Shown in pieces: positions 18,518 through 30,460 of a DNA stretch of 64,000 bases. Made by a program: the position numbers and the translations under genes. The notes under the pieces were generated by a model. The model was not told the DNA's origin and ran no database searches. It saw only the letters and a list, made by a program, of their open reading frames with translations. Source of the stretch: an uncultured Bacteriovorax sp. GTDB taxonomy: Bacteria > Bdellovibrionota > Bacteriovoracia > Bacteriovoracales > Bacteriovoracaceae. How positions within the stretch are numbered: the stretch's first letter is position 1; each line of letters begins with the position of its first letter. The stretch lies in assembly GCA_964456675.1 (NCBI GenBank), contig CAYWBR010000002.1:19215-83214 (forward strand), written 5' to 3'.

Positions 18518-19351
18518 TCAACCTAAAAGTTTTAGTGCAGCTTGACCTTGAGCATTTGCTTGAGAAAGTACTGAAGTACCAGCATTCGTTAAGATGTTCA
18601 TCTTAGTATTCTTTGCCGATTCCATTGCAAAATCTGTGTCGCGAATTCGAGAGTTTGCAGCAGACAAGTTTTCAGATGAAATCTGTAAATTGTTTATTGT
18701 CGATGACAATCTGTTTTGAATCGCACCAAGCTCTGCTCTTTGTCCTGAAACATTTTGAAGAGCTGTATCAATAGTGGCCAGTGATGCCTGAGATCCATCT
18801 TTTGAACCTACTGTTAGCTCTTGAATTCCAAGTGCAGACATTCCGGCATTTGTTCTAGCGGCATCGTACTTAATTCTATCTTGGAAATCGTCATTATTGA
18901 TACCAACTTGGAAATCAAATTTATCCCCAGCACCATTTAAAAGTTTTTTACCGTTAAACTCTGTTGAAGATGAAATTCTTTCAATCTCTTGCTTTAAGTT
19001 CTGAAACTCAAGATCAGTAAACTTTCTTTCGTCATCACCTACTGTATCAGAAGCAGATTGTACTGATAATTCTCTTAATCTTACTAAAATGTTAGAAACC
19101 TCATTCAAACCACCTTCTGCTGTTTGAATCAATGAAATACCATCATTCGCGTTTCTTTCAGCTTGGTTAACACCACGAATTTGTGCTTTTAACTTTTCTG
19201 AAATCGCAAGTCCTGCAGCATCGTCTGCCGCACGTACAATTCTTGTACCAGATGATAATTTCCCTAGTGAGTTGGCTTGCTCAGTGTTGTTTGCGCTTAA
19301 TGTTCTCTGAGCTGCTAAAGACGTGACGTTGGTGTTGATACGTAATCCCAT
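18518..19351 (-). CDS. fliC: Flagellin (minimal, D0-D1 only)
   Basis: RINTN, LSSGTRI..AADDAAGLAI and SRIRDTDFA motifs. 277 aa with a GGAGG SD. Confidence 0.97.
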   Translation of the reverse strand: MGLRINTNVTSLAAQRTLSANNTEQANSLGKLSSGTRIVRAADDAAGLAISEKLKAQIRGVNQAERNANDGISLIQTAEGGLNEVSNILVRLRELSVQSASDTVGDDERKFTDLEFQNLKQEIERISSSTEFNGKKLLNGAGDKFDFQVGINNDDFQDRIKYDAARTNAGMSALGIQELTVGSKDGSQASLATIDTALQNVSGQRAELGAIQNRLSSTINNLQISSENLSAANSRIRDTDFAMESAKNTKMNILTNAGTSVLSQANAQGQAALKLLG

Positions 19352-19652: not shown

Positions 19653-22442
19653 ATGGAAAACAAAAAAGCGCTCGTCATTATCCCTCCCTACTCTGAACCT
19701 CTTAAAAAACTAGGGGAAATACTTTCAACTCCTGAAGAAGCTGAGTCAATTGATATATATGTTCTAGAAGATTTGAAAGAAGCTGGTCAATTGATCCCAA
19801 CATTAGGACAGTGTCTTATTGTCATCGCGAACGCAAAAAAATGCGCGCTATTCTTACAAGAAAACAGATGGGCAATATCTAAAAATCACTCAAAAGTAAT
19901 TTTGATGACCCCAAAAGAAATTCCCCAAAAAACCTTAATGAAATTTCTAAAAATTGGGCTTACTGAGGTAATTTTAGAAACACTTCCTCCTAAAAGCTTA
20001 CTTTACAAAATCAAACTACTTCTGCGCTCTGTAAAAGGACAAGAAAGTAAAAAAGAAGAAAATATCAACGTTAAAAGTATGCTTGACATGAGTCAGCAGA
20101 AAAATGACGACGAACAACAACGAGTTGAAAAAGGAATTATTGCAGACACAGAAGTAAGTGCCCCCTCAGAAGACAAAGAAAAAAAAATGATCATTGAAGA
20201 AGATACTGATTCATTTGATTATCTAAAAGCAAAAAAGAAAAACCAGCAAGAAGACAATGTCATTGACACTCACTGGAAATCAAAAAGAAACGACACTCAA
20301 ATCTCGTTAGAAGATGGCGAAGAAATTGAAAAGAAAAAATCATCTGCAGAAGAGATATCAACTTATTACAAAAATGAGCGTAAAGCTAATCTAGATCTTG
20401 ACTTCATAGCAGACGAAAACATGTCAGGGAAAGCTTCAGGAACTGAGGATGAGTCTACGTTTAGCATCGAAAAACTTAAGCAAGCAATGCTAACAGAGAT
20501 TGAACTTGAGGATAGTTTAAAAGATAAGAAAAAAAACAACTCCCTCGAAGAAGACGATGAAGATATTTATCATAGAGAACAAAAAGAAACAGAGATCAAT
20601 CTAGAAAAAGAAGATACAAAAAAAAGCGATACCTTCGAAGATGAATCTGACAACGAAAGAAAAAGAAAAAATGAAGACGTCACAGAGCTTAGTTTAGAGA
20701 AAGAAGAAAAAGCTAAATCTGACGAAAATCTAAACCTAATCGACAATTACCTCAAGGGTAAAATCAACAACGACAAATCCATCATGGAAGTTGACGAAGA
20801 AGAATTTGTTGATAAAAAAATCAATGAAATAAATGAGGATGATAAGGACGACTCGACTCAAAACAATCTATCGCTAGATGAAAATGAAGAAAGCGAAATG
20901 AGTCATGCTTCTAACTTAAAAGAAGAAATAAATAACACCGATCAAGAAAACGAAAAAGGTTTTCAACGTGAAGAAAGCGCAGAAGATGGCTTTATGCGCG
21001 GAAAAATTTCAAAAAACACCGATCTAAATCTACAAGAAGAAAAAAAAGATTCAAAGACGCAACAAGAAGAATCTAACAATAAAGAACGTGAAAATAGTCA
21101 CAAAAACTCACTAGACGATCTTGATGATTCATTAAATGATATTAACAAGAAAACTAAAACCAATGAAGCTGATGAAGAAATTGATAACTCAGATAAAAAT
21201 GCCGAAGTTGACCTGACTGATGAATCAGATGATCTACGAAAAAAATTACAAAACGAACTAGACCTAGAATTAGAAATGTCATCTGATGATGACACCCCTG
21301 AGAATCAAGATCAAAATAAAAAAAATGGTGTAAACAAACTTCAACGTTTAACTGTCGATGATGAAAATGAAAATAATAATAAATTAGAAAAATTAAATGA
21401 AGATGATGCTCGGTCTCAAAATCTTAAAAAATTAGCAAATACACAATTAGAATTTGAAAAGGAACATGATCTTGACTCAACTAATGCCTCAGTAGAACAT
21501 CTAGATAAATATATGCGAAGTCGATCTTTAAAATCTGAAGATCAAGACTGGAATATTGGCACAAAGAAAAAAGATACAGCGATAGCGCTACAAAAAGGTA
21601 AAAAAGACGACGTAAATTTAAATTTGTTGCCTGACTTCAAAGATGCGGGTGAACAAACAATCGATTATCGCAAATTAAAAGAAGAATTTGAACTTCTAAA
21701 AGATGGTGCCAATCTTCCTCCTGACGAAATAGAAAAAATTCGAAAAATGATTCGTGGTGAAAGTGAAGATAGTGAGGATCTATATCAAGTATTCTCGCCA
21801 AGCCCTAACGGTGTAGACTTTCTTGTTGAAATTGCCATTGATTTGTACGACACAAGCATAAAACCTCGCGATATTTTTGAAAAAATAGCAAAAAAAATTC
21901 ATGAACAAAAAGGATTTGCTACTTTTTTACAATACTCAAAACCAACCGAAATAAAAGAAATATACTCAGTATTTCAAATAACTGAAAACGGATTTATCAG
22001 CGATGAAACTCGTAATGCTTTTTCTGAAATAAAAAAAGAAAATGATTTATTTAAGACACAAGCAACCTACTCACTGGCAAATTGGAAATGCACTGAAATA
22101 CTCGACAAAAACAATCGCCCCTGGGAAGACACTGAACTTCCAACTTGGGCACAAAATGAACTTCAAAACAAGAAAGTTGAATATATATATCCAATGTTTG
22201 ATGGACTAGATCGAATGGGTCATATCTACATATGGTTTCCTGACGGAATCGTCGCTAATGAAGCCCGAAATATCGATATTATTATAGAGGCCTCAAGACC
22301 TTTGTTTCTTGATCAAATAATTAGATCATCAAAAAATACCAAGATTAATGATGCTGATGAAAATGAAGATAACCAAAATAATCAAAAAACGGGAATATTT
22401 AGCGGAATCACATCTCTTTTTGGCAAAAAAAAAGTGGGATAG
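19653..22442 (+). CDS. Pseudo-receiver domain + long acidic disordered region + C-terminal globular (GAF-like?) domain
   Basis: Residues 1-125 follow the REC pattern (VILMTP, FLKIGLTEVI, SLLYKIKLLLR) but lack the acidic pocket and conserved Lys. About 550 aa are D/E/K/N-rich. Confidence 0.75.
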   Translation: MENKKALVIIPPYSEPLKKLGEILSTPEEAESIDIYVLEDLKEAGQLIPTLGQCLIVIANAKKCALFLQENRWAISKNHSKVILMTPKEIPQKTLMKFLKIGLTEVILETLPPKSLLYKIKLLLRSVKGQESKKEENINVKSMLDMSQQKNDDEQQRVEKGIIADTEVSAPSEDKEKKMIIEEDTDSFDYLKAKKKNQQEDNVIDTHWKSKRNDTQISLEDGEEIEKKKSSAEEISTYYKNERKANLDLDFIADENMSGKASGTEDESTFSIEKLKQAMLTEIELEDSLKDKKKNNSLEEDDEDIYHREQKETEINLEKEDTKKSDTFEDESDNERKRKNEDVTELSLEKEEKAKSDENLNLIDNYLKGKINNDKSIMEVDEEEFVDKKINEINEDDKDDSTQNNLSLDENEESEMSHASNLKEEINNTDQENEKGFQREESAEDGFMRGKISKNTDLNLQEEKKDSKTQQEESNNKERENSHKNSLDDLDDSLNDINKKTKTNEADEEIDNSDKNAEVDLTDESDDLRKKLQNELDLELEMSSDDDTPENQDQNKKNGVNKLQRLTVDDENENNNKLEKLNEDDARSQNLKKLANTQLEFEKEHDLDSTNASVEHLDKYMRSRSLKSEDQDWNIGTKKKDTAIALQKGKKDDVNLNLLPDFKDAGEQTIDYRKLKEEFELLKDGANLPPDEIEKIRKMIRGESEDSEDLYQVFSPSPNGVDFLVEIAIDLYDTSIKPRDIFEKIAKKIHEQKGFATFLQYSKPTEIKEIYSVFQITENGFISDETRNAFSEIKKENDLFKTQATYSLANWKCTEILDKNNRPWEDTELPTWAQNELQNKKVEYIYPMFDGLDRMGHIYIWFPDGIVANEARNIDIIIEASRPLFLDQIIRSSKNTKINDADENEDNQNNQKTGIFSGITSLFGKKKVG

Positions 22443-22451
22443 GTAAATAAA

Positions 22452-23504
22452 ATGAAAGCAGAAATTGACTTCTTTTTAATTGATAAAGAACACTTGAAAG
22501 GTCAACGAACTTTTCCATTTCAACTATTCATCATGAATCCTATTCATAAAAAATTTACTCTTTTTTTAAATGCCAATCGACCAATGTCTAAAGAACTAGA
22601 TAATTTTTTAGACTATATAGTTTCTAAAGGTGGCTTTTTGGCCGTTTTAAGAAAACAAAAAAAGACTTTCTTAAAGGCCCTCGAATTAAACGAAGATGAT
22701 GTGCCTACCCTTAAAAAGCGAGAATTACACGATTTAGAAAAAGAACAGATCATGTATAGCAAATTGAAAGAAATATGGATTGAAAAACATGGTGTTTTTG
22801 GCTTTTTAACAGAGTTTGAAAAGGCCGCAAAAACAGACAACTTTGATAGAATAATTGAATACACACGAGTAGAGATATTAGCATTTAGTGTTAATCGAAA
22901 TAGCACAAATACATTTGCAATAGAATTGGCCAAAAAATTTCTTATTAAAGATAATTTTATCAATCGAATTGTAGCTACCGCATATTATGTTGCTAAAAAC
23001 TTAAATATATTAGACGAAGATTCGTTATCAGACATTATAGTAGGAAGCTATCTCATTCATCTTGCAAATACTCAAATGTCACTTTCCATAAGTAGAAAAG
23101 CACAGCAAGAATATTTTGACGCTGAAAAAAAGTTCTACCAAAAACATCCACTACTGGCTTTTCACTTATTAAAACGCAGTCAAATCAATGTGAATGAACG
23201 AGTAAAACGCATTGTTAATGAGCATCACGAGCGAAACGGAGGACGTGGTTTTCCAATGGAAAAAGCAGGAGACGCAATTGAGCCACTGGCCTTATTAGTA
23301 GGAGCTGTCGCTCACCTATTCGAATATTCCACTGGAAAAGTGAACGGCAGTAAGCAATCCCTTCGCTCCGTTATTTTTCATATAAAAAATCGTTCAATTA
23401 TGCCTGGACTAGAATTTGATTTCGGCGATACTATATATAACGCAATTACAACTTTAATTGATACAGAGAAAAAAGAAGAAGATAATTTAAACTTAGCTGC
23501 TTAG
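22452..23504 (+). CDS. Degenerate HD-GYP-domain protein
   Basis: KHP..AFHLL and HHERNGGRGFP match the HD-GYP core. The HD dyad reads IHLAN. Confidence 0.75.
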   Translation: MKAEIDFFLIDKEHLKGQRTFPFQLFIMNPIHKKFTLFLNANRPMSKELDNFLDYIVSKGGFLAVLRKQKKTFLKALELNEDDVPTLKKRELHDLEKEQIMYSKLKEIWIEKHGVFGFLTEFEKAAKTDNFDRIIEYTRVEILAFSVNRNSTNTFAIELAKKFLIKDNFINRIVATAYYVAKNLNILDEDSLSDIIVGSYLIHLANTQMSLSISRKAQQEYFDAEKKFYQKHPLLAFHLLKRSQINVNERVKRIVNEHHERNGGRGFPMEKAGDAIEPLALLVGAVAHLFEYSTGKVNGSKQSLRSVIFHIKNRSIMPGLEFDFGDTIYNAITTLIDTEKKEEDNLNLAA

Positions 23505-23538: not shown

Positions 23539-23934
23539 ATGGCTTTGAAAGCTGACATTAAAATTCTTGTTGTGGACGATATGGCGACAATGAGAAAAAT
23601 TATTAAAAACATGCTTACACAAATTGGATTTACCAACATTACAGAAGCTGATGACGGTGCAACTGCATGGCCTTTAATGGAAAGTGCAATTAAAGAGGGA
23701 AAGCCATTTGAATTTATCGTTTCTGACTGGAACATGCCTCAAATGAGTGGTCTCGATTTATTAAAAAAAGTAAGAGAAACTAAAGGTCTTGAAAAACTTC
23801 CGTTTCTAATGATTACGGCAGAAGCCGAGCAAGGAAACGTTGTTATAGCTGTTAAGGCAGGTGTAAGTAACTTTATTGTAAAACCATTTTCTGCCCAAGT
23901 TCTAAAAGAAAAAATTGATAAAATATTCAAATAG
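23539..23934 (+). CDS. cheY: Chemotaxis response regulator CheY
   Basis: VVDD, SDWNMP, MITAE and VKPF are all intact. Start moved to ATG 23539, which follows a GGGAGAG SD. Confidence 0.93.
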   Translation: MALKADIKILVVDDMATMRKIIKNMLTQIGFTNITEADDGATAWPLMESAIKEGKPFEFIVSDWNMPQMSGLDLLKKVRETKGLEKLPFLMITAEAEQGNVVIAVKAGVSNFIVKPFSAQVLKEKIDKIFK

Positions 23935-23945
23935 GTCCGTTTAGC

Positions 23946-24443
23946 ATGACGTTTATAAATGATCCCATGATGAAAGAGATTGTTGATGATTTTTGCATCG
24001 AAGCTGAAGGTTTATTCGACCAGATGGATGAGTGCATTCGAAAATTAGAAGACAACCCTCTAGATACTAAAGAGTTAGAAAAGTATGGGCAAATGATTGA
24101 TCGGATTATGGGTGCTGCGAAATCAATTGGCGCCTCTGAAATTGCTACTTTTTGCGAGCTTGGGAAAGTTATTGGATATAAATCGTCACAAACAAGAGAA
24201 GTCCCACTTCTTGAAGTAGTTATCGCAATTTTAGGCGATACGGTAGATATGTTAAGAAAAATGATTAAAGCGCTAAAAGTGGGAGATGCTACTTGTCTTA
24301 ATAAATTGAATACCAAAGCGTTTGTAACTAGATTGCAATGGCTTTCGGCCAAATTTAAAGACATTGAAAGATCTTCTTGCAAGATTGATGGTAACTTAAA
24401 CCAGAATTCAATCGATGATTTATTACAAAGTTTAGGATTATAA
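23946..24443 (+). CDS. Hpt-like helical protein lacking histidine, with a CheZ-like C-terminal peptide
   Basis: CheA-P1/Hpt-like pattern (F..EAE.L...L..LE.NP). The H-box reads IDRIMGAA and the protein ends SIDDLLQSLGL. Confidence 0.7.
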   Translation: MTFINDPMMKEIVDDFCIEAEGLFDQMDECIRKLEDNPLDTKELEKYGQMIDRIMGAAKSIGASEIATFCELGKVIGYKSSQTREVPLLEVVIAILGDTVDMLRKMIKALKVGDATCLNKLNTKAFVTRLQWLSAKFKDIERSSCKIDGNLNQNSIDDLLQSLGL

Positions 24444-24458
24444 AATATTGGAGTCTAT

Positions 24459-24968
24459 ATGGCAGGTGAGTCGCGGTTCATTGAGTTTTCTAAACCATTT
24501 ATTGATGCAGCTAAAAACGTTTTTGAAACAATGGTTTTTACTAAATTAGATACGTCTAAGCCCACAATAAAAAATGACAATATTTCTAAGGGGGACATTT
24601 CTGCAGTATTAGGACTTTCTGGAGAAGTAGAAAAAAATGGTTCAAAAGTTCCCTATAAAGCCATGCTTGTCATATCATTTCCATATGAAACATATTTCAA
24701 GGTTGCAGGTGCAATGCTGTCAGAAACCTATACATCTTATTGTCCTGAAATTCATGATGTGGGTGGAGAAATTGCCAATATGATTATGGGAAATGCTAAG
24801 CGAGATTTAAAAACTATGGGATATTCATCAAATATGGCGATTCCATCTATGATCGAAGGTAAAAATCATACAATTAAATATCCCAATGGGACAACCGTAG
24901 TGTTAATTCCATTTCTAAGCGCCCATGGTGAAATGTATATGGAACTTTGCTATACAGAATCTGAATAA
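24459..24968 (+). CDS. cheX: Chemotaxis phosphatase CheX
   Basis: ISAVLGLSG, GEIANMIMGN (ExxN) and MAIPSMIEG motifs. Confidence 0.9.
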   Translation: MAGESRFIEFSKPFIDAAKNVFETMVFTKLDTSKPTIKNDNISKGDISAVLGLSGEVEKNGSKVPYKAMLVISFPYETYFKVAGAMLSETYTSYCPEIHDVGGEIANMIMGNAKRDLKTMGYSSNMAIPSMIEGKNHTIKYPNGTTVVLIPFLSAHGEMYMELCYTESE

Positions 24969-24970
24969 AA

Positions 24971-25462
24971 TTATTTCACCTTTAAAGATAGTGTTAAAAT
25001 AAATTTGGCCACGGGTTCCGTGGTCGAATATTTTGGAGTGAATGCTAAAATCTCAAGCGGCATATTCATTCTTTCTCCAGACCTTACAACTTCATCGACA
25101 AATTTTTTAATTTCTTGGCCTTGAGAATTAATAAAAATTGTGTCTCCTTCAGCTCGCTTTAAAAAATCAGCATGAAAATCTTTAAAAGATAATGCTACTT
25201 TTTTATGTGAATCTTCAATACATTTCATGGCAATTAAACCACCAGCAATATCTGCGCCAGCGCTTAAGACACCAAAGTACATAGAATTTAGATGATTTTT
25301 TGTCCGACGATTTAACTTAATTTCTATGTGGCATTCAGATTCATCTAAACGAATTACTTTGGGACCAATCCAGAAAATCATTGGCACTTGAAAAAATCCA
25401 AATAAATTAATCATTGCTTGATCGCGATACTTTAGTGGCACATATTTAAGAATTTTTTTCAT
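24971..25462 (-). CDS. Hot-dog fold thioesterase-like protein (PaaI/YiiD/DUF4442-like)
   Basis: NHLNSMYFG..AGAD and ADFLKRAEG motifs. Confidence 0.75.
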   Translation of the reverse strand: MKKILKYVPLKYRDQAMINLFGFFQVPMIFWIGPKVIRLDESECHIEIKLNRRTKNHLNSMYFGVLSAGADIAGGLIAMKCIEDSHKKVALSFKDFHADFLKRAEGDTIFINSQGQEIKKFVDEVVRSGERMNMPLEILAFTPKYSTTEPVAKFILTLSLKVK

Positions 25463-26282
25463 AAATAATTCCTTTATTAAGATTTTTTTGAATTTCTATA
25501 CTTTTAGATATCGCCATATCCATAGAGGTGCGAATTAATTTTTCGACTCCCCCATCTTTCATCGATTGAATTGCCTTCTCTGTTAAACCACCTTTTGAGG
25601 TTACTTGAGAACAAAGTTCATTTAGTGTTAATCGATTATTAAAATAGAGTTCTACAGATCCTTTAATTACATCCATCATTATGCGTTCTAAATCCATCTC
25701 CGCGAGCGCCGGAATTTTTCTTTCTTTTAAATCAAGTGCGAGATCATTAAAAAAAGAATATAGCATACCTGGCAAGCACCCAGTATAGGGTGTGAGTAAT
25801 TCTAATTCATTATCGCTTTGAAGCTCAATAATGGTTCCAAAATGTTGACCTAAAATTTTAAATTGAGCGGCCAGAGGGTCAAAGAGCACTGACTGGTGAA
25901 TTACAATCGGAATCACTCCCAAGCCAATCTCTGAAGGAGTATTTGGCATTATCCTAATTAGTCGATTTGTTTTGAATTTTTTTTCTAAAGTATCAAGACT
26001 AATTGCTGCTAGCATCGATACTAGAATTGCTTCTTTTTTAAGTTTTGGAATTAATACTGTTTCCAATGATTGAGGCTTCATGGCCAAAAATAAAAAATCT
26101 AAATCTTCTGGGAATTCATTTAAATCATGAACGAATTCACCACAAGTTTCAACTGCCAATTGCCGGGCCTTAGTAGCACTTGGCGAGTAAAAATAAAGCT
26201 GCACTCCGGTTCTTCCACAGGCTTTAAGTCTTAAACCTAAAGCCCTTGCCATATTTCCTGCGCCTAAAAATCCAATTTTCAT
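25446..26282 (-). CDS. proC: Pyrroline-5-carboxylate reductase
   Basis: IGFLGAGNMA, LAMKPQ, RIMPNTP and VTSKGGLT motifs. Confidence 0.92.
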   Translation of the reverse strand: MKIGFLGAGNMARALGLRLKACGRTGVQLYFYSPSATKARQLAVETCGEFVHDLNEFPEDLDFLFLAMKPQSLETVLIPKLKKEAILVSMLAAISLDTLEKKFKTNRLIRIMPNTPSEIGLGVIPIVIHQSVLFDPLAAQFKILGQHFGTIIELQSDNELELLTPYTGCLPGMLYSFFNDLALDLKERKIPALAEMDLERIMMDVIKGSVELYFNNRLTLNELCSQVTSKGGLTEKAIQSMKDGGVEKLIRTSMDMAISKSIEIQKNLNKGIIYEKNS

Positions 26283-29200
26283 TATAATTCCAAATCTAGT
26301 GGTGCTCCGTGCCTCATAGTATTTATGGCCAGTGATCTGACATTAACAAATTTTAAGTAAATTTGGTAAAAATCATTAAGGTCAAAAGAGTCCTGAATTG
26401 TTAAAATGTGTACCAAACGTTTTCTTACGATATCTCCATAAAGATAAGTTGTGAGCTCGTTAGGCACAGACTCGATTGGTCCGTCATATAATACGTGAGT
26501 TAGTTTTTCATCTCTTAATGCTTTTTTGAAACTTTCTTCAGTCACAAAAAAAGCATCTAGATTTTCTTTAGAAAATCCTGATTTATAAAACAAGTCTAAA
26601 ATATGCGACCAAAATTGATAGCTTTTTTCGTTTCGACAAAGAACACTCACTCCAACACCTGTTGATACAGCAGCAAAAAATTGAAGAAGTGTTTTAATAT
26701 GAGGCCTAGGATTTACGCTCACGACAAGCATATGATCGACATGCATGCGATGATTGTTAACACTAATTTGACCAGGGATCTTTCTATTTGCGTGGTCCTT
26801 TTCAAAGAAGTTTATATAATTTTTACTCATCCACTTTAAGTAATTTCTCACAACTTCTTTTTCACCGGGACGAACGTCGCCCATAAAAGATTCAAATGAA
26901 GATAACAATTGATTTGAAAATTTTTCCATGCGCTCTAATTTTGAACTAAAGCTTAATCGAGATGGTTTAGCGCGCACAATTTCATAGTCACTGCCTTTTT
27001 CGATCAAACAGCGAACTCCTTCAATTACATTAAAAGAAGTTTGATGAAGTGCCTGAATATAATGACGTCCACCTGCTTTTGGGCCTGTTCCAGAAAATTT
27101 AAATCCTCCAAAAGGCTCAATGCCAACTCTTGCTCCAGTGATCGTTCTATTGATATATAAATTCCCACATTCTAGACGATCAACTAAATAATCAATATCG
27201 TCTTGAGATTGAGAAAAAATTCCACCAGTAAGTGCATAATCGGTTGCATTGAATAATTTAATTGCATCATCTAGTTCTTTAAAGCCAATGATGTGTAGTA
27301 CTGGTCCAAAAATTTCTTGCTGGGAAACACTTTCGCTATTTAGAGCTCGATCCATTGGCAATTCAATAATACTTGGCCCAATATCAAATCCTCGACTTTC
27401 ATGGTTGGCACGAGAAAGAACCATTGATCCTTTAAACTCATTCGCTTCAAGTTCTGAAGCCTTCACCATTCGGCGTACTCTTTCTTTGTCTTCTTTCGAA
27501 ATTAGTGGATTTATGCTGGTTTTAAAATCAAGCGCAGACCCCACTGCAATATCAATAGAAGCGGCTTTTAATCTCTCAATTAATTTAGGTTTTAATGATT
27601 CATGAACAATGACTCGTGAACAAGCTGAACATTTCTGGCCAGCATGACCAAATGCAGATGCTAGAATACCAGAGACTGTTTCATCTAATTCGGCATTTTG
27701 AGCGACAATTATGGCATTTTTTCCACCCATTTCCGTAATGGCTTTTACTGGATAAATCTTTTTAAATCGTTTATTTTCGTACACACGTTTTTGAGCTTCA
27801 CGGTGAATATAGGTTCCAACAGCTTTAGATCCAGTAAAAATTATTCCTGAGATGCGTGGGTCCTTCACTAAATAATCCCCTACTACTTCACCAAGACCCG
27901 GTAGGTGAACAAAAGCTCCTTTGGGTACACCGGCCATAAAGAAAATTTTTGCTAGTTCTTCGGCAATTAGCGGAGTTTGCTCAGCAGATTTTAAAATGAC
28001 AGTGTTACCTGCTACTAATGCACCCGCGGCCATACCACATGGGATAGCGAGAGGAAAATTCCAAGGTGCGATTACGGCAATTGGACCTCTTGCAATTAAA
28101 TTATCAAAATTTGTCTGTAAGTAACCTTCTGTACGCGCATAAAAAGTTAAAAAATCGATAGCCTCATCTACGTCTGCCAGGGCTTCATTAACTGTTTTTC
28201 CAGCTTCGTACATGATAAGGGCCGATAGCTCTAATCTTTTTGAAAGCATAATTTCGCTTGCTCTCAAAAGAATTTTTGCTCGAACAATCCACGAAACAAT
28301 AGGCCAGTCTCCTTCATTAAATTCTCTATCGACTATTTTCAGGGCATCTTCTGTGTCATTTGCATCAGCAAAGGCAATCTTTCCCACCGTTATCGCAGAG
28401 TCTGAACTAGAAATAATCTCAACTAGATTATTAGATCTTATATGCGAAAGTTCATAAGTTTTTCCTAATTTATTTGACTCAAAGCTTTTTATTGCCTGAT
28501 TTATTTCACGCAAGTGATCCGCTAAATAAAGCCTTGCAGGACCTACGTTAAAAAATTCTTCGCTCAGTTTTGTTTGGCTTAAGTCTCTATCGATATTACC
28601 CTTTTCTTTTTTCTCTTTATGGGCATCGAGAGGAGATACTAATGATGTCTGCTTTTTATGGGATCTCATTATGGTTAAAACTCCAACCTGCGAAGAGTTT
28701 TCCATAATTCTTCTAACCAAATATGCCATCCCAACTAATAACGAACCTACCGGAACATAATTTCTTACAACCCAACCTTCTTTGGCCAGTGCCGTTGAAA
28801 GCGCTTCATAGGTCATGTGCAAACATTGGTGTTCGATTTTAAAAGATTCAGGGTACATTTTTTCTCTGAGAGCTTCTGCAAATGCATGATCTGAAAAATT
28901 ATGAGATGCCAGACACAGCTTAATATGTTTATGGTTTTTTAACATTTCATGTACAAGTTGGCGAAAATGAATGTCTGTTTCTTCTTTGTTTAAAAACTGA
29001 GGAGCATTAAAGCCATGGGCATCTCCCTCAACGGTTTCAGCATCCCAATAAGCACCTTTGACAATACGAACAGGCATAGAAAAACCGCGTATCTTTGCCA
29101 GCTCTAAAATATCTTTAAAGTGCTTTGCTCCATCTCGTAAGTAAGCCTGAAGAACAATCCCGGTATTACTAAAATCTTTTAACTCTGGTGTTTCTAATAA

Positions 29201-30460
29201 AATGCGCTTCCAAATATCAAAAACTATATCGCGATAATGGTAGTGTTCTGCATCGATATTAATAAACACACAATGCTCTTTCGCCGTTAATAATATTTTT
29301 TTTAAACGAGGAGCAACTAAATGATAGGTATATTCTGGAGCATGGGGCTTAAAATCTGATGCTAGTGCAGATACTTTTATAGATACATGGGCCCTTAAAA
29401 TTCCGGCTGCATTTTCTTCTGCATGCTTTACATGCCGTGAAAATCCTCGAACTAACTTGAGGACTTCTTCCATATAGTGATCGGCTTCACTCTCAGAAAC
29501 AACTAATTCTCCCAATTGGTCTAGAGTTACGTCTCTTCCGGTAACTCTTAAAGCTTTAAGAGACTCGTCTGCAAGCTCAATGCTTTCACCGGCAATAAAT
29601 CTTTTGGCCATAAATCGAACCATAGATCTAACGATTGATGCCAACATTCCTGCAGGTAGAATCTTGCTTGCTTGATAAGATAAATGAATGATCAACGTAA
29701 AATTATTTGGCAATGGTCTTTCTTGACCTTTCTTTTTTAAAATACGTGCTTTTTTATTATCACCTAGAAATCGTTTTAGTGATTCTAATAAAATTCTCTT
29801 TACCTCAACTCCCCTTTTATCGTGGTCAAGAGAAGGTAGAATCGCTAAAAATTTTAAGAGGTGAATTCTCAATAATGCATATTGCGCAGTTAACCCCAGC
29901 GCATAGTCTGAAATCATTTCAAACCAACTTGGTGAGTAGCTATTAACGTGGACAAGTAAGGATTTAACAATTTCTTCGGCCCGACGATCAACTTCTTTTA
30001 AAGTCACAAGATCAATTAAATCTAAAATTTTTGTAATGACTTCACTTTCAGTGGGAAAGTCTTTTACTTTTAGTTTTAATACTGGGTCTACATGGTTTTT
30101 TAATTCTTGGAAAACTGCACTGGATAAGATTTTTCCACTGGAATCTTGATTCGCATGTTGAAGCAAAAATAATTCATTATGCAATCTTGGCGAATAAAAA
30201 CGTATGGCTTTAGCGTTTGGAAAAAAAGCTACCAAATAAGGAACTGTTAAAAAATTAAATTCTTTTCTAAAATCACTATCTAAATTTAAAATATATGTTT
30301 TTAATGTAGAAGCAATATCGGCATGAAGCTCTCTATCCATAAACATATTGTCATGGTAATCAGCATAATAACTTAAACTCCATCCTTCGAATTGCACAGT
30401 TTTTATTGGTGAAAAAATTTTCAAAATAGTTTCAGATGTTACGTTGGTGGTCATGGCCAT
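26282..30460 (-). CDS. putA: Bifunctional proline dehydrogenase / glutamate-semialdehyde dehydrogenase, extended
   Basis: PRODH motifs INIDAE, VLQAYLR, RIVKGAYWD and ASHN. ALDH motifs APWNFPLAI, EMGGKN, GQKCSACSR, QEIFGPV and FGGFKFSG. Confidence 0.95.
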   Translation of the reverse strand: MAMTTNVTSETILKIFSPIKTVQFEGWSLSYYADYHDNMFMDRELHADIASTLKTYILNLDSDFRKEFNFLTVPYLVAFFPNAKAIRFYSPRLHNELFLLQHANQDSSGKILSSAVFQELKNHVDPVLKLKVKDFPTESEVITKILDLIDLVTLKEVDRRAEEIVKSLLVHVNSYSPSWFEMISDYALGLTAQYALLRIHLLKFLAILPSLDHDKRGVEVKRILLESLKRFLGDNKKARILKKKGQERPLPNNFTLIIHLSYQASKILPAGMLASIVRSMVRFMAKRFIAGESIELADESLKALRVTGRDVTLDQLGELVVSESEADHYMEEVLKLVRGFSRHVKHAEENAAGILRAHVSIKVSALASDFKPHAPEYTYHLVAPRLKKILLTAKEHCVFINIDAEHYHYRDIVFDIWKRILLETPELKDFSNTGIVLQAYLRDGAKHFKDILELAKIRGFSMPVRIVKGAYWDAETVEGDAHGFNAPQFLNKEETDIHFRQLVHEMLKNHKHIKLCLASHNFSDHAFAEALREKMYPESFKIEHQCLHMTYEALSTALAKEGWVVRNYVPVGSLLVGMAYLVRRIMENSSQVGVLTIMRSHKKQTSLVSPLDAHKEKKEKGNIDRDLSQTKLSEEFFNVGPARLYLADHLREINQAIKSFESNKLGKTYELSHIRSNNLVEIISSSDSAITVGKIAFADANDTEDALKIVDREFNEGDWPIVSWIVRAKILLRASEIMLSKRLELSALIMYEAGKTVNEALADVDEAIDFLTFYARTEGYLQTNFDNLIARGPIAVIAPWNFPLAIPCGMAAGALVAGNTVILKSAEQTPLIAEELAKIFFMAGVPKGAFVHLPGLGEVVGDYLVKDPRISGIIFTGSKAVGTYIHREAQKRVYENKRFKKIYPVKAITEMGGKNAIIVAQNAELDETVSGILASAFGHAGQKCSACSRVIVHESLKPKLIERLKAASIDIAVGSALDFKTSINPLISKEDKERVRRMVKASELEANEFKGSMVLSRANHESRGFDIGPSIIELPMDRALNSESVSQQEIFGPVLHIIGFKELDDAIKLFNATDYALTGGIFSQSQDDIDYLVDRLECGNLYINRTITGARVGIEPFGGFKFSGTGPKAGGRHYIQALHQTSFNVIEGVRCLIEKGSDYEIVRAKPSRLSFSSKLERMEKFSNQLLSSFESFMGDVRPGEKEVVRNYLKWMSKNYINFFEKDHANRKIPGQISVNNHRMHVDHMLVVSVNPRPHIKTLLQFFAAVSTGVGVSVLCRNEKSYQFWSHILDLFYKSGFSKENLDAFFVTEESFKKALRDEKLTHVLYDGPIESVPNELTTYLYGDIVRKRLVHILTIQDSFDLNDFYQIYLKFVNVRSLAINTMRHGAPLDLEL

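Follow-up and report, generated by a model that had tools for sequence, protein, structure and literature searches.

What can a phosphotransfer-like protein do in chemotaxis if it has no histidine to phosphorylate? This question is raised by hptL, a gene located between cheY (upstream) and cheX (downstream) in a 64,000-nucleotide stretch of contig CAYWBR010000002.1 from an uncultured Bacteriovorax sp. The whole of this stretch is referred to here as the window. An earlier note on this DNA, made from the letters alone, reported that the 165-amino-acid (aa) HptL translation contains no His and that the gene lies between cheY and cheX. Translation of the open reading frame (ORF) bore out the first point, and Pfam and NCBIfam assignments bore out the second. 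We designate HptL a pseudo-Hpt protein because the fold of a histidine phosphotransfer (Hpt) or CheA P1 domain is present but the His and Glu features that define such domains fail. Members of the HptL family probably switch off, or capture, the swimming signal carried by phosphorylated CheY (CheY~P). The idea of the earlier note that HptL is a CheY phosphatase or a sequestering adaptor is plausible. It is quite possible, if short of likely, that HptL does so as an analogue of CheZ, with an Hpt domain as the scaffold of a CheY~P phosphatase. The observations made here that bear on this proposal are the P1 fold of the protein body, the replacement of active-site residues and the conservation of the replacements, the similarity of the C-terminal tail to that of CheZ, and the synteny of hptL with chemotaxis genes.

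The body of HptL is a CheA-P1-type Hpt domain, an assignment made because the results of Pfam, phmmer, profile, and hhalign comparisons, the AlphaFold2 (AF2) model, and fold matches were considered together. The AF2 model (predicted local distance difference test score [pLDDT], 85.3; predicted template modelling score [pTM], 0.80) has helices at residues 7-36, 41-60, 64-80, 86-111, and 124-137, followed by a short terminal helix at residues 156-162. When the model was compared with the PDB in Foldseek, the best match was the P1 domain of Rhodobacter sphaeroides CheA3 (3KYJ/3KYI; target TM-score [TMt], 0.80). The P1 domains of Salmonella CheA (1I5N) and Thermotoga maritima were also recovered, with TMt values for CheA P1 of up to 0.82. 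Sequence comparisons pointed the same way. The Pfam Hpt model (PF01627) scored 20.5 bits on HptL, under its cut-off of 24.6 bits, and matched 56 of 127 relatives (best E value, 2.3e-6). The best phmmer match in the PDB was T. maritima CheA P1 (2LD6; E value, 0.0095), and a profile of the 127 family members matched the CheA P1 domains of Thermotoga, Escherichia coli, and Salmonella in the same database. With hhalign, this profile aligned to residues 1-140 of E. coli CheA over 109 columns with a probability of 86% (E value, 4.9e-6). HptL therefore has both the helix-bundle fold of an Hpt domain, including the fifth helix of CheA P1, and profile similarity to it. The suggestion in the earlier note of an Hpt-like protein with a nonconventional site holds, and can be stated more precisely as a CheA-P1-type protein with an Asp where the phospho-His is expected.

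That Asp is D52 (codon 24099-24101), which aligned with the phospho-accepting His, His48 of E. coli CheA, in HMMER and hhalign alignments with the P1 domains of both T. maritima and E. coli. In these alignments the DRIMGAA segment of HptL overlies H-x-x-K-G-x-A, and Gly56, Ala58, and Gly62 align with the conserved small residues that follow the phospho-His. Glu70 of CheA P1, the hydrogen-bond partner of the phospho-His, is replaced by Lys74, and Lys51 (His+3) is replaced by Met55. Missing from HptL, then, are the phosphorylatable helix-B His, Glu70, and the Lys at His+3 of Hpt and CheA P1 domains. At the level of aligned sequences, the His/Glu pair of P1 is replaced by an Asp/Lys pair.

The replacements are a property of the family rather than of one protein. 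In an alignment of 127 diverse family members, D52 and K74 were each conserved in 124 members, G56 in 119, R53 and M55 in 117 each, and A58 in 116. The column of the phospho-site held Asp in 124 members and Leu, Glu, and Gln in one member each; no His was found at this site in 120 close relatives or in the 127 diverse members aligned. The total absence of His is incidental to the HptL of the window because its relatives contain 0 to 5 His each, scattered at variable positions. The family trait is the lack of His at the site. Position 49 was Gln in 95 members and Asn in 15 (an amide in 110), and position 45 was Glu in 91 and Asp in 7 (an acid in 98). The E45-x3-Q49 arrangement, which has the spacing of the CheZ Asp/Gln pair and lies on an exposed face in a helical wheel, was present as a Glu/Gln pair in 76 members. 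The earlier note had singled out E..GQ, DRIMG, and the tail as segments whose conservation should be checked. Conservation of D52, R53, M55, and G56 was strong and the tail was specific to the family, but E45 and Q49 were not the most conserved positions, a distinction that belongs to D52, R53, and K74.

The location of these residues is that expected of a site facing a receiver domain. In the helical wheel, E45, Q49, D52, G56, and K59 share one face within 60 degrees, with R53 adjacent, and the face with E45, Q49, and D52 is the one that bears the His in true Hpt domains. In the crystal structure of CheA3P1 with CheY6, the His-bearing Hpt face is directed toward the receiver Asp (PMC2817712). 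The near-strict conservation of D52, R53, K74, and the amide at a receiver-facing site argues that HptL is more than a passive scaffold.

The C-terminal tail provides a second putative link to CheY. When NQNSIDDLLQSLGL was compared with residues 201-214 of E. coli CheZ, SQDQVDDLLDSLGF (sequence taken from NC_000913), 8 of 14 residues were identical, and the match proposed in the earlier note was upheld by both BLAST (E value, 0.008) and hhalign (E value, 0.0053). As for the CheZ peptide, the tail of HptL is the extreme C-terminus of the protein and lies past a disordered linker. Of 1,304 mechanical ORFs in the full set of loci, 71 matched a regular expression for the C-terminal tail, and every match was a member of the family; in the window, 1 of 275 ORFs matched. 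Thus, as far as sequence comparison goes, the resemblance of the HptL tail to the CheZ peptide is significant for the peptide itself, and the tail is specific to the family. Members adjacent to cheY keep the tail as Q-x-x-I-D-D-L-[LM]-x-x-L-G-L. Natural variants that have no tail also occur (L068 5989-6435 and L075 5989-6435); these are 148 aa long, are adjacent to cheY and cheX, and end in ...KRASVGF(D/E)E.

A tail of this type might suggest that HptL is simply a CheZ. However, the Pfam CheZ model (PF04344) gave no match to the HptL of the window at E values up to 1. The model matched 6 of the 127 family members, and in P0181, the only one of them for which coordinates were inspected, the match was to the tail only, with residues 167-210 falling on positions 164-202 of the 203 in the profile. 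Neither BLAST nor hhalign gave a significant alignment with E. coli CheZ beyond HptL residues 152-165. The CheZ structure 1KMI was not among the PDB sequence-profile matches, nor was it among the 50 best of 268 fold matches. An HMM match over the helical body of CheZ, including the D143-x3-Q147 region, is missing from HptL, as is, in the predicted fold, the long helical hairpin. HptL is placed outside the CheZ family because nothing except the tail matches CheZ; with only those 14 residues in common and a predicted P1 fold, membership in that family is ruled out. A plain CheZ-family match that accounted for the whole protein, the outcome that the earlier note had named as fatal to its idea, did not occur. 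The same note had also likened EKYGQMI to the catalytic DLTGQVI of CheZ. The letters are indeed there, but the BLAST E value was 0.47 and hhalign did not recover the alignment. Homology of the two segments is not supported, and the resemblance is kept only as an analogy.

HptL-type proteins are a real family that is so far uncharacterized. A search of 5.8 billion proteins returned 425 family matches. Among representatives at 50% identity, 107 clusters were matched at E values up to 1e-10 and 235 at values up to 1e-3; the latter number is a lower bound on the size of the family. Among the best 80 of 230 genome loci, the labels were Bacteriovoracaceae, Halobacteriovoraceae, Bdellovibrio, or Oligoflexia, with the exception of one metagenome-assembled genome labelled Flavobacteriaceae. 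As far as seen, then, the family is restricted to Bdellovibrionota. Cultured Bdellovibrio, including B. bacteriovorus HD100 (CAE79677.1; UniProt Q6MM29) and strain Tiberius (Bdt_1795), has members of a subfamily in which the B-C loop is longer.

The source databases call members of the family "hypothetical protein," "Hpt domain-containing protein," "CheA" (JGI), and, once, "Chemotaxis protein CheZ" (UniRef, Bdellovibrio). These names, together with the Pfam CheZ match that touches the tail, are what favors the view that HptL belongs to a family already known, whether as a CheZ that has diverged or as an Hpt protein that still works in a phosphorelay. A divergent CheZ would be expected to match outside the 14-residue tail, which was not observed with Pfam, BLAST, or hhalign, and to have the CheZ hairpin rather than a P1 fold. 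A working Hpt protein would need a His, and HptL is His-free; all of the relatives that were aligned lack one at the phospho-site. The ordinary interpretation is refuted at the sequence level, and we give it almost no credence.

If HptL is instead a CheY~P phosphatase, its action can be pictured by analogy with CheA P1-P2 and CheZ. We infer CheY binding, the docking geometry, and catalysis as follows. The C-terminal CheZ-type peptide would act as a tether, holding HptL on CheY, the product of the gene upstream, at the alpha4-beta5-alpha5 face. CheZ and FliM peptides bind this face of CheY, and the peptide-binding-face residues K119 and K122 are retained in the CheY of the window. This CheY is 46% identical to that of E. 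coli and also keeps D57 (Asp63 in the window protein), T87, and K109, with Y106 replaced by F; its score against the NCBIfam CheY model, 142.5 bits, is below the equivalog cut-off of 189 bits. The linker of ca. 15 residues would let the P1-like body dock on the CheY active site in the usual Hpt-receiver mode, placing the helix-B face (E45, Q/N49, D52, and R53) and K74 over Asp~P. Being shorter than a His and unable to accept the phosphoryl group, Asp52, or else the neighboring Gln/Asn, might then keep a water molecule aligned for attack on the acyl phosphate and accelerate CheY~P hydrolysis. R53 and K74, with D52 and Q/N49, would position or activate the water where the imidazole would otherwise attack, and the outcome would be hydrolysis, not transfer. 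HptL would share with CheX a motility module to which HD-GYP-type proteins also belong.

To our knowledge, all known auxiliary receiver phosphatases place a helix-borne amide or acid for the attacking water (Gln147/Asp143 in CheZ, Asn/Glu in CheX/CheC, Gln in Rap, and Asp in Spo0E). The proposed positioning of water by Asp52 and the amide fits this common chemistry. Besides CheZ, the CheC/CheX/FliY group, and a poorly defined region of CheA3, no protein is known to dephosphorylate CheY~P. A broader claim, which we advance yet more tentatively, is that HptL adds to the classes of CheY~P phosphatase a fourth one with an independent structure, in which the exchange of His/Glu for Asp/Lys has made a hydrolase that has a CheZ-type tether and is wired to HD-GYP (cyclic di-GMP [c-di-GMP]-type) proteins in Bdellovibrionota. 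In R. sphaeroides CheA3, His-less Hpt domains make up most of the region in which CheY6~P phosphatase activity resides (PMC10542144; PMC6829392). The phosphatase interpretation of HptL fits with activity in a region rich in such domains.

Several points weigh against this interpretation. A gene for a working CheY~P phosphatase, cheX, already adjoins hptL; thus, a second phosphatase is not obviously needed. Binding of an Hpt protein may protect a phosphorylated receiver rather than expose it, as when YPD1 stabilizes SSK1~P. Neither Q49 nor E45 is invariant, and ca. 13% of family members have no amide at position 49. Some relatives in which an HptL domain is fused to an additional N-terminal domain keep the tail but have lost D52, R53, or K74, which shows that the tail does not depend on the putative active site for its function. 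The commonest neighbor of hptL is an HD-GYP-type gene rather than cheY, and loci of the Bdellovibrio type have no adjacent cheY or cheX. Furthermore, no published work on the HptL family was found in the literature searched.

Some of these points lend themselves to a different explanation, in which HptL is a noncatalytic pseudo-Hpt protein that clamps CheY or CheY~P with its tail and P1-like face. Such a protein could block transfer from CheA P1 to CheY, compete with FliM, or shield CheY~P, serving as a buffer or sequestering agent in the manner of AHP6 or YPD1. The evidence from fold, tail, and synteny serves it as well as it serves a phosphatase. Also in its favor are the conservation of the catalytic candidates E45 and Q49 at only 77 to 87%, the fusions that retain the tail after losing D52, R53, or K74, and the phosphatase activity already supplied by the adjoining cheX. 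However, a near-invariant Asp at the His site, together with Arg53 and Lys74, exceeds the usual needs of binding. A plain competitor could carry many residues at that position, and AHP6 has Asn there. On balance we consider a purely noncatalytic binder somewhat unlikely.

The gene neighborhoods bear on whether HptL serves CheY only. Neighbors were counted within a 3-kb radius of hptL at 86 loci, and the gene immediately upstream was recorded at 81 loci. A cheY gene was within this radius at 72 of the 86 loci and was immediately upstream on the same strand at 69 of the 81. A cheX gene, adjacent or 2 kb off, was found at 68 loci. An HD-GYP-type (HD_5) gene was found at 75 loci and in all four of the arrangements recognized. 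In the first arrangement, that of the window, the order is pseudo-receiver/acidic ORF, HD_5, cheY, hptL, and cheX. The second has cheX, a Bd1817-like HD-GYP gene on the minus strand, cheY, hptL, and then an HD_5 gene and a pseudo-receiver ORF, both on the minus strand. In the third, a gene for a CheA of the form REC-Hpt-HATPase_c-CheW, which has no P2 domain, is followed directly by an hptL paralogue and then by a Bd1817-like gene. In the fourth, that of Bdellovibrio, hptL is divergently paired with an orthologue of Bd1817, and there is no adjacent cheY or cheX. The neighbor in loci of this last type matched the Bd1817 structure (PDB 3TM8) with an E value of 2.5e-98. Bd1817 was crystallized as an "unconventional HD-GYP" protein, with no partner reported and the hptL neighbor unmentioned (PMC3188283). 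Divergent pairs of hptL and a Bd1817 orthologue were seen in L082 (5025-5957, minus strand), L084, L085, and L086.

It is possible to read these neighborhoods as evidence that HptL is an adaptor between CheY~P and two kinds of protein encoded in its cluster, those of the HD-GYP type and those with a pseudo-receiver. The tail would take CheY~P while the body docked on the pseudo-receiver or on a DUF3391-HD-GYP protein, connecting chemotaxis, in one direction or the other, with c-di-GMP or another HD-domain activity. The persistence of HD-GYP-type genes across all four arrangements and the Bdellovibrio pairs without cheY or cheX favor this explanation, as do natural fusions of a pseudo-receiver with HptL. 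The five fused relatives (P0140, P0143, P0164, P0170, and P0274) are 335-378 aa long and have an extra N-terminal domain of ca. 125 aa, all of which can be aligned with the N-terminal part of the 929-aa ORF at 19653-22442. The AF2 model of P0140 (pLDDT, 80.8) shows this domain as a (beta-alpha)5 structure, for which Foldseek returned the receivers KdpE, BfmR, XynC, and CheB with TMt values of 0.6-0.73. The sequence profile of the domain had no match in the PDB, and its identification comes from the fold search only. The domain is a pseudo-receiver, a label given because the acidic Mg2+-binding pair of true receivers is missing from the alignment. However, the AF2 model of P0140 showed no confident docking between the domains (pTM, 0.53; the linker was disordered), and the absence of any reported partner for Bd1817 offers the adaptor no help. 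Nor does an adaptor explain the invariance of D52, R53, and K74 any better. For these reasons the adaptor role appears distinctly unlikely.

The third arrangement raises the further possibility that HptL is directed at the kinase, as a decoy that occupies the P4 domain of a P2-less CheA or brings CheY to it as a substitute P2 in trans, tuning CheA output. The position of the paralogue directly downstream of a P2-less CheA would suit this, as would the homology of the HptL body with P1. The CheA-adjacent paralogue in L067 (5558-6091) keeps GQ..DRIMG and K74 and passes the Pfam Hpt cut-off (30 bits); others were found in L058, L070, L074, L077, L078, and L081. These paralogues end in TTAELQKLISQFGKAS, a tail unlike the CheZ type. 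The majority of family members, however, are not beside cheA, and the CheZ-type tail points toward CheY~P rather than CheA. A decoy function for HptL is thus improbable.

The features of HptL and of the operon are listed in Table 1. The hptL gene starts 11 nucleotides past the cheY stop codon and ends 15 nucleotides ahead of cheX, and its G+C content (35.3%) is close to that of the window (35.1%). An antisense ORF of 151 aa (23927-24382, minus strand) covers almost all of hptL. It was rejected as a mechanical ORF because the conserved frame, with hundreds of homologues, is on the plus strand. The HD_5 protein of the window has an N-terminal domain of a non-receiver type, its GYP motif has degenerated to GFP, and it had no match in the PDB by sequence. 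In other lineages hptL is accompanied by a gene of the Bd1817 type (DUF3391-HD-GYP), to which the HD_5 gene of the window is a second paralogue. The middle of the 929-aa ORF is very long, acidic, and of low complexity, rich in Glu, Asp, Lys, and Asn, and is followed by a conserved C-terminal region of ca. 230 aa without a Pfam match; the orthologue in L054 is 645 aa long. About 300 bp upstream of the operon is a divergent flagellin gene (18518-19351, minus strand; Flagellin_N and Flagellin_C), which supports a context of flagellar motility. On the other side, a convergent block on the minus strand (24971-30460) encodes a DUF4442 protein, proC (P5C reductase), and a 1,392-aa PutA-type bifunctional proline dehydrogenase/aldehyde dehydrogenase. 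This block is ordinary metabolism and marks the 3' boundary of the hptL operon.

Table 1. Positions in the window of hptL, the parts of its product, and the accompanying genes
Feature	Position	Strand	Description
929-aa ORF	19653..22442	+	N-terminal pseudo-receiver (about residues 1-125); no Pfam match
HD-GYP-type (HD_5) protein	22452..23504	+	350 aa; PF13487, E 6.1e-11; motif HHERNGGRGFP
cheY	23539..23934	+	131 aa; presumed target of HptL; NCBIfam CheY model and Pfam Response_reg
hptL	23946..24443	+	ATG to TAA, stop codon included; 165 aa; His-less, CheA-P1-like, CheZ-type tail
P1/Hpt-like five-helix body	23964..24356	+	Residues 7-137; AF2, Foldseek, hhalign
Helix-B motif E45-K-Y-G-Q49-M-I-D52-R53-I-M-G-A-A-K59	24078..24122	+	P1 alignments, conservation, helical wheel
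K74 codon	24165..24167	+	Aligns with CheA P1 Glu70 (hhalign, HMMER); K in 124/127
Flexible linker	24357..24398	+	Residues 138-151; pLDDT <50 at 143-153; length differs among relatives
Putative CheY-docking-type tail NQNSIDDLLQSLGL	24399..24440	+	Residues 152-165; short helix at 156-162
cheX	24459..24968	+	169 aa; PF13690, E 5.5e-19; catalytic motif E104-x2-N107

Signal termination is the least conserved step in bacterial chemotaxis, and with HptL the conversion of a phosphotransfer domain to another use can be tested at little cost. The protein is soluble and only 165 aa long, its presumed partner CheY is encoded 11 nucleotides upstream, and B. bacteriovorus HD100, which is amenable to genetics, has a homologue (Q6MM29, beside Bd1817). 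HptL bears on the role of His-less Hpt domains (PMC10542144). If a phosphatase on an Hpt scaffold proved true, it would suggest a role for the His-less Hpt domains in ChpA and CheA3. If HptL merely sequesters CheY, it would still be the first bacterial stand-alone pseudo-Hpt protein with a defined docking peptide. A stand-alone bacterial pseudo-Hpt protein combining an Asp/Lys swap with a CheZ-type tether was not described in the literature searched. The pairing with hptL also provides a new lead on what Bd1817, the "unconventional" HD-GYP protein, may do and a possible link between chemotaxis and HD-GYP signaling in predatory bacteria.

Comparison with known systems indicates what HptL shares with each and where it departs from them. 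The catalytic helix of CheX, G-G-E-I-x-N-M-I-M-G-N-A-K, resembles F-G-Q-x-I-D-R-I-M-G-A-A-K of HptL, and both have an acid and an amide in an i/i+3 relation. In the window, CheX GGEIANMIMGNAK and HptL YGQMIDRIMGAAK (24087-24122) have I-M-G-x-A-K in common, and the CheX segment GGE104-I-A-N107-MIMGNAK is conserved in the loci. Should this resemblance have a meaning, the catalytic Asn of CheX would correspond to Asp52 of HptL. However, the acid and the amide are swapped, and the alpha/beta fold of the CheX/CheC/FliY group is unrelated to the all-helical model of HptL, which lacks the CheC-like fold with E-x2-N. The only match of HptL to CheX in hhalign was a 12-residue stretch of this helix, which was not significant (E value, 0.054).

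Among proteins with an Hpt fold, plant AHP6 is a His-replaced Hpt protein that acts by binding partners rather than by relaying phosphate; HptL likewise has the Hpt fold and has lost the His. AHP6 differs in being eukaryotic, in having Asn at the site and no tethering peptide, and in inhibiting a phosphorelay instead of partnering CheY. Closer to hand are the His-less Hpt folds in the chemosensory proteins ChpA of Pseudomonas aeruginosa and CheA3 of R. sphaeroides, in the latter within the region between P1 and P5 (PMC10542144; PMC6829392). These are internal domains of large kinases, and they are likened to HptL by description, not by sequence. The role of His-less Hpt domains has been described as "yet to be determined" (PMC10542144), and a stand-alone form, a CheZ-type tail, or a conserved Asp/Lys swap was not described for domains of this kind in the literature searched.

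CheZ (PF04344), the CheY~P phosphatase of beta- and gammaproteobacteria, resembles HptL in its end peptide, Q-x-x-(I/V)-D-D-L-L-x-S-L-G-(L/F), in the flexible linker that joins this peptide to a helical bundle, in the spacing of an acid-x3-Gln pair on an exposed helix (E45/Q49 in HptL), and in the location of its gene beside cheY. Homology is detectable in the tail only, however. HptL is predicted to be a monomer-type P1 bundle, whereas CheZ is a long dimeric hairpin, and D52, R53, and K74, the best-conserved residues of HptL, have no CheZ counterpart. The likeness of HptL to CheZ catalysis is one of analogy, not homology. The closest relative of the HptL body is CheA P1, as represented by E. 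coli CheA residues 1-134 and by the domains of T. maritima (2LD6/1TQG) and R. sphaeroides (3KYJ). The two share the five-helix fold, a chemotaxis gene context, the helix-A F-x-x-E, and the G-x-A-x-x-x-G that follows the active-site position, and both would be expected to dock on the CheY active site. In HptL, His48 has become Asp, Glu70 has become Lys, and Lys51 has become Met, and the protein cannot be phosphorylated on His. Rather than being part of a kinase, HptL stands alone, with a C-terminal peptide of the CheY-binding type in place of P2.

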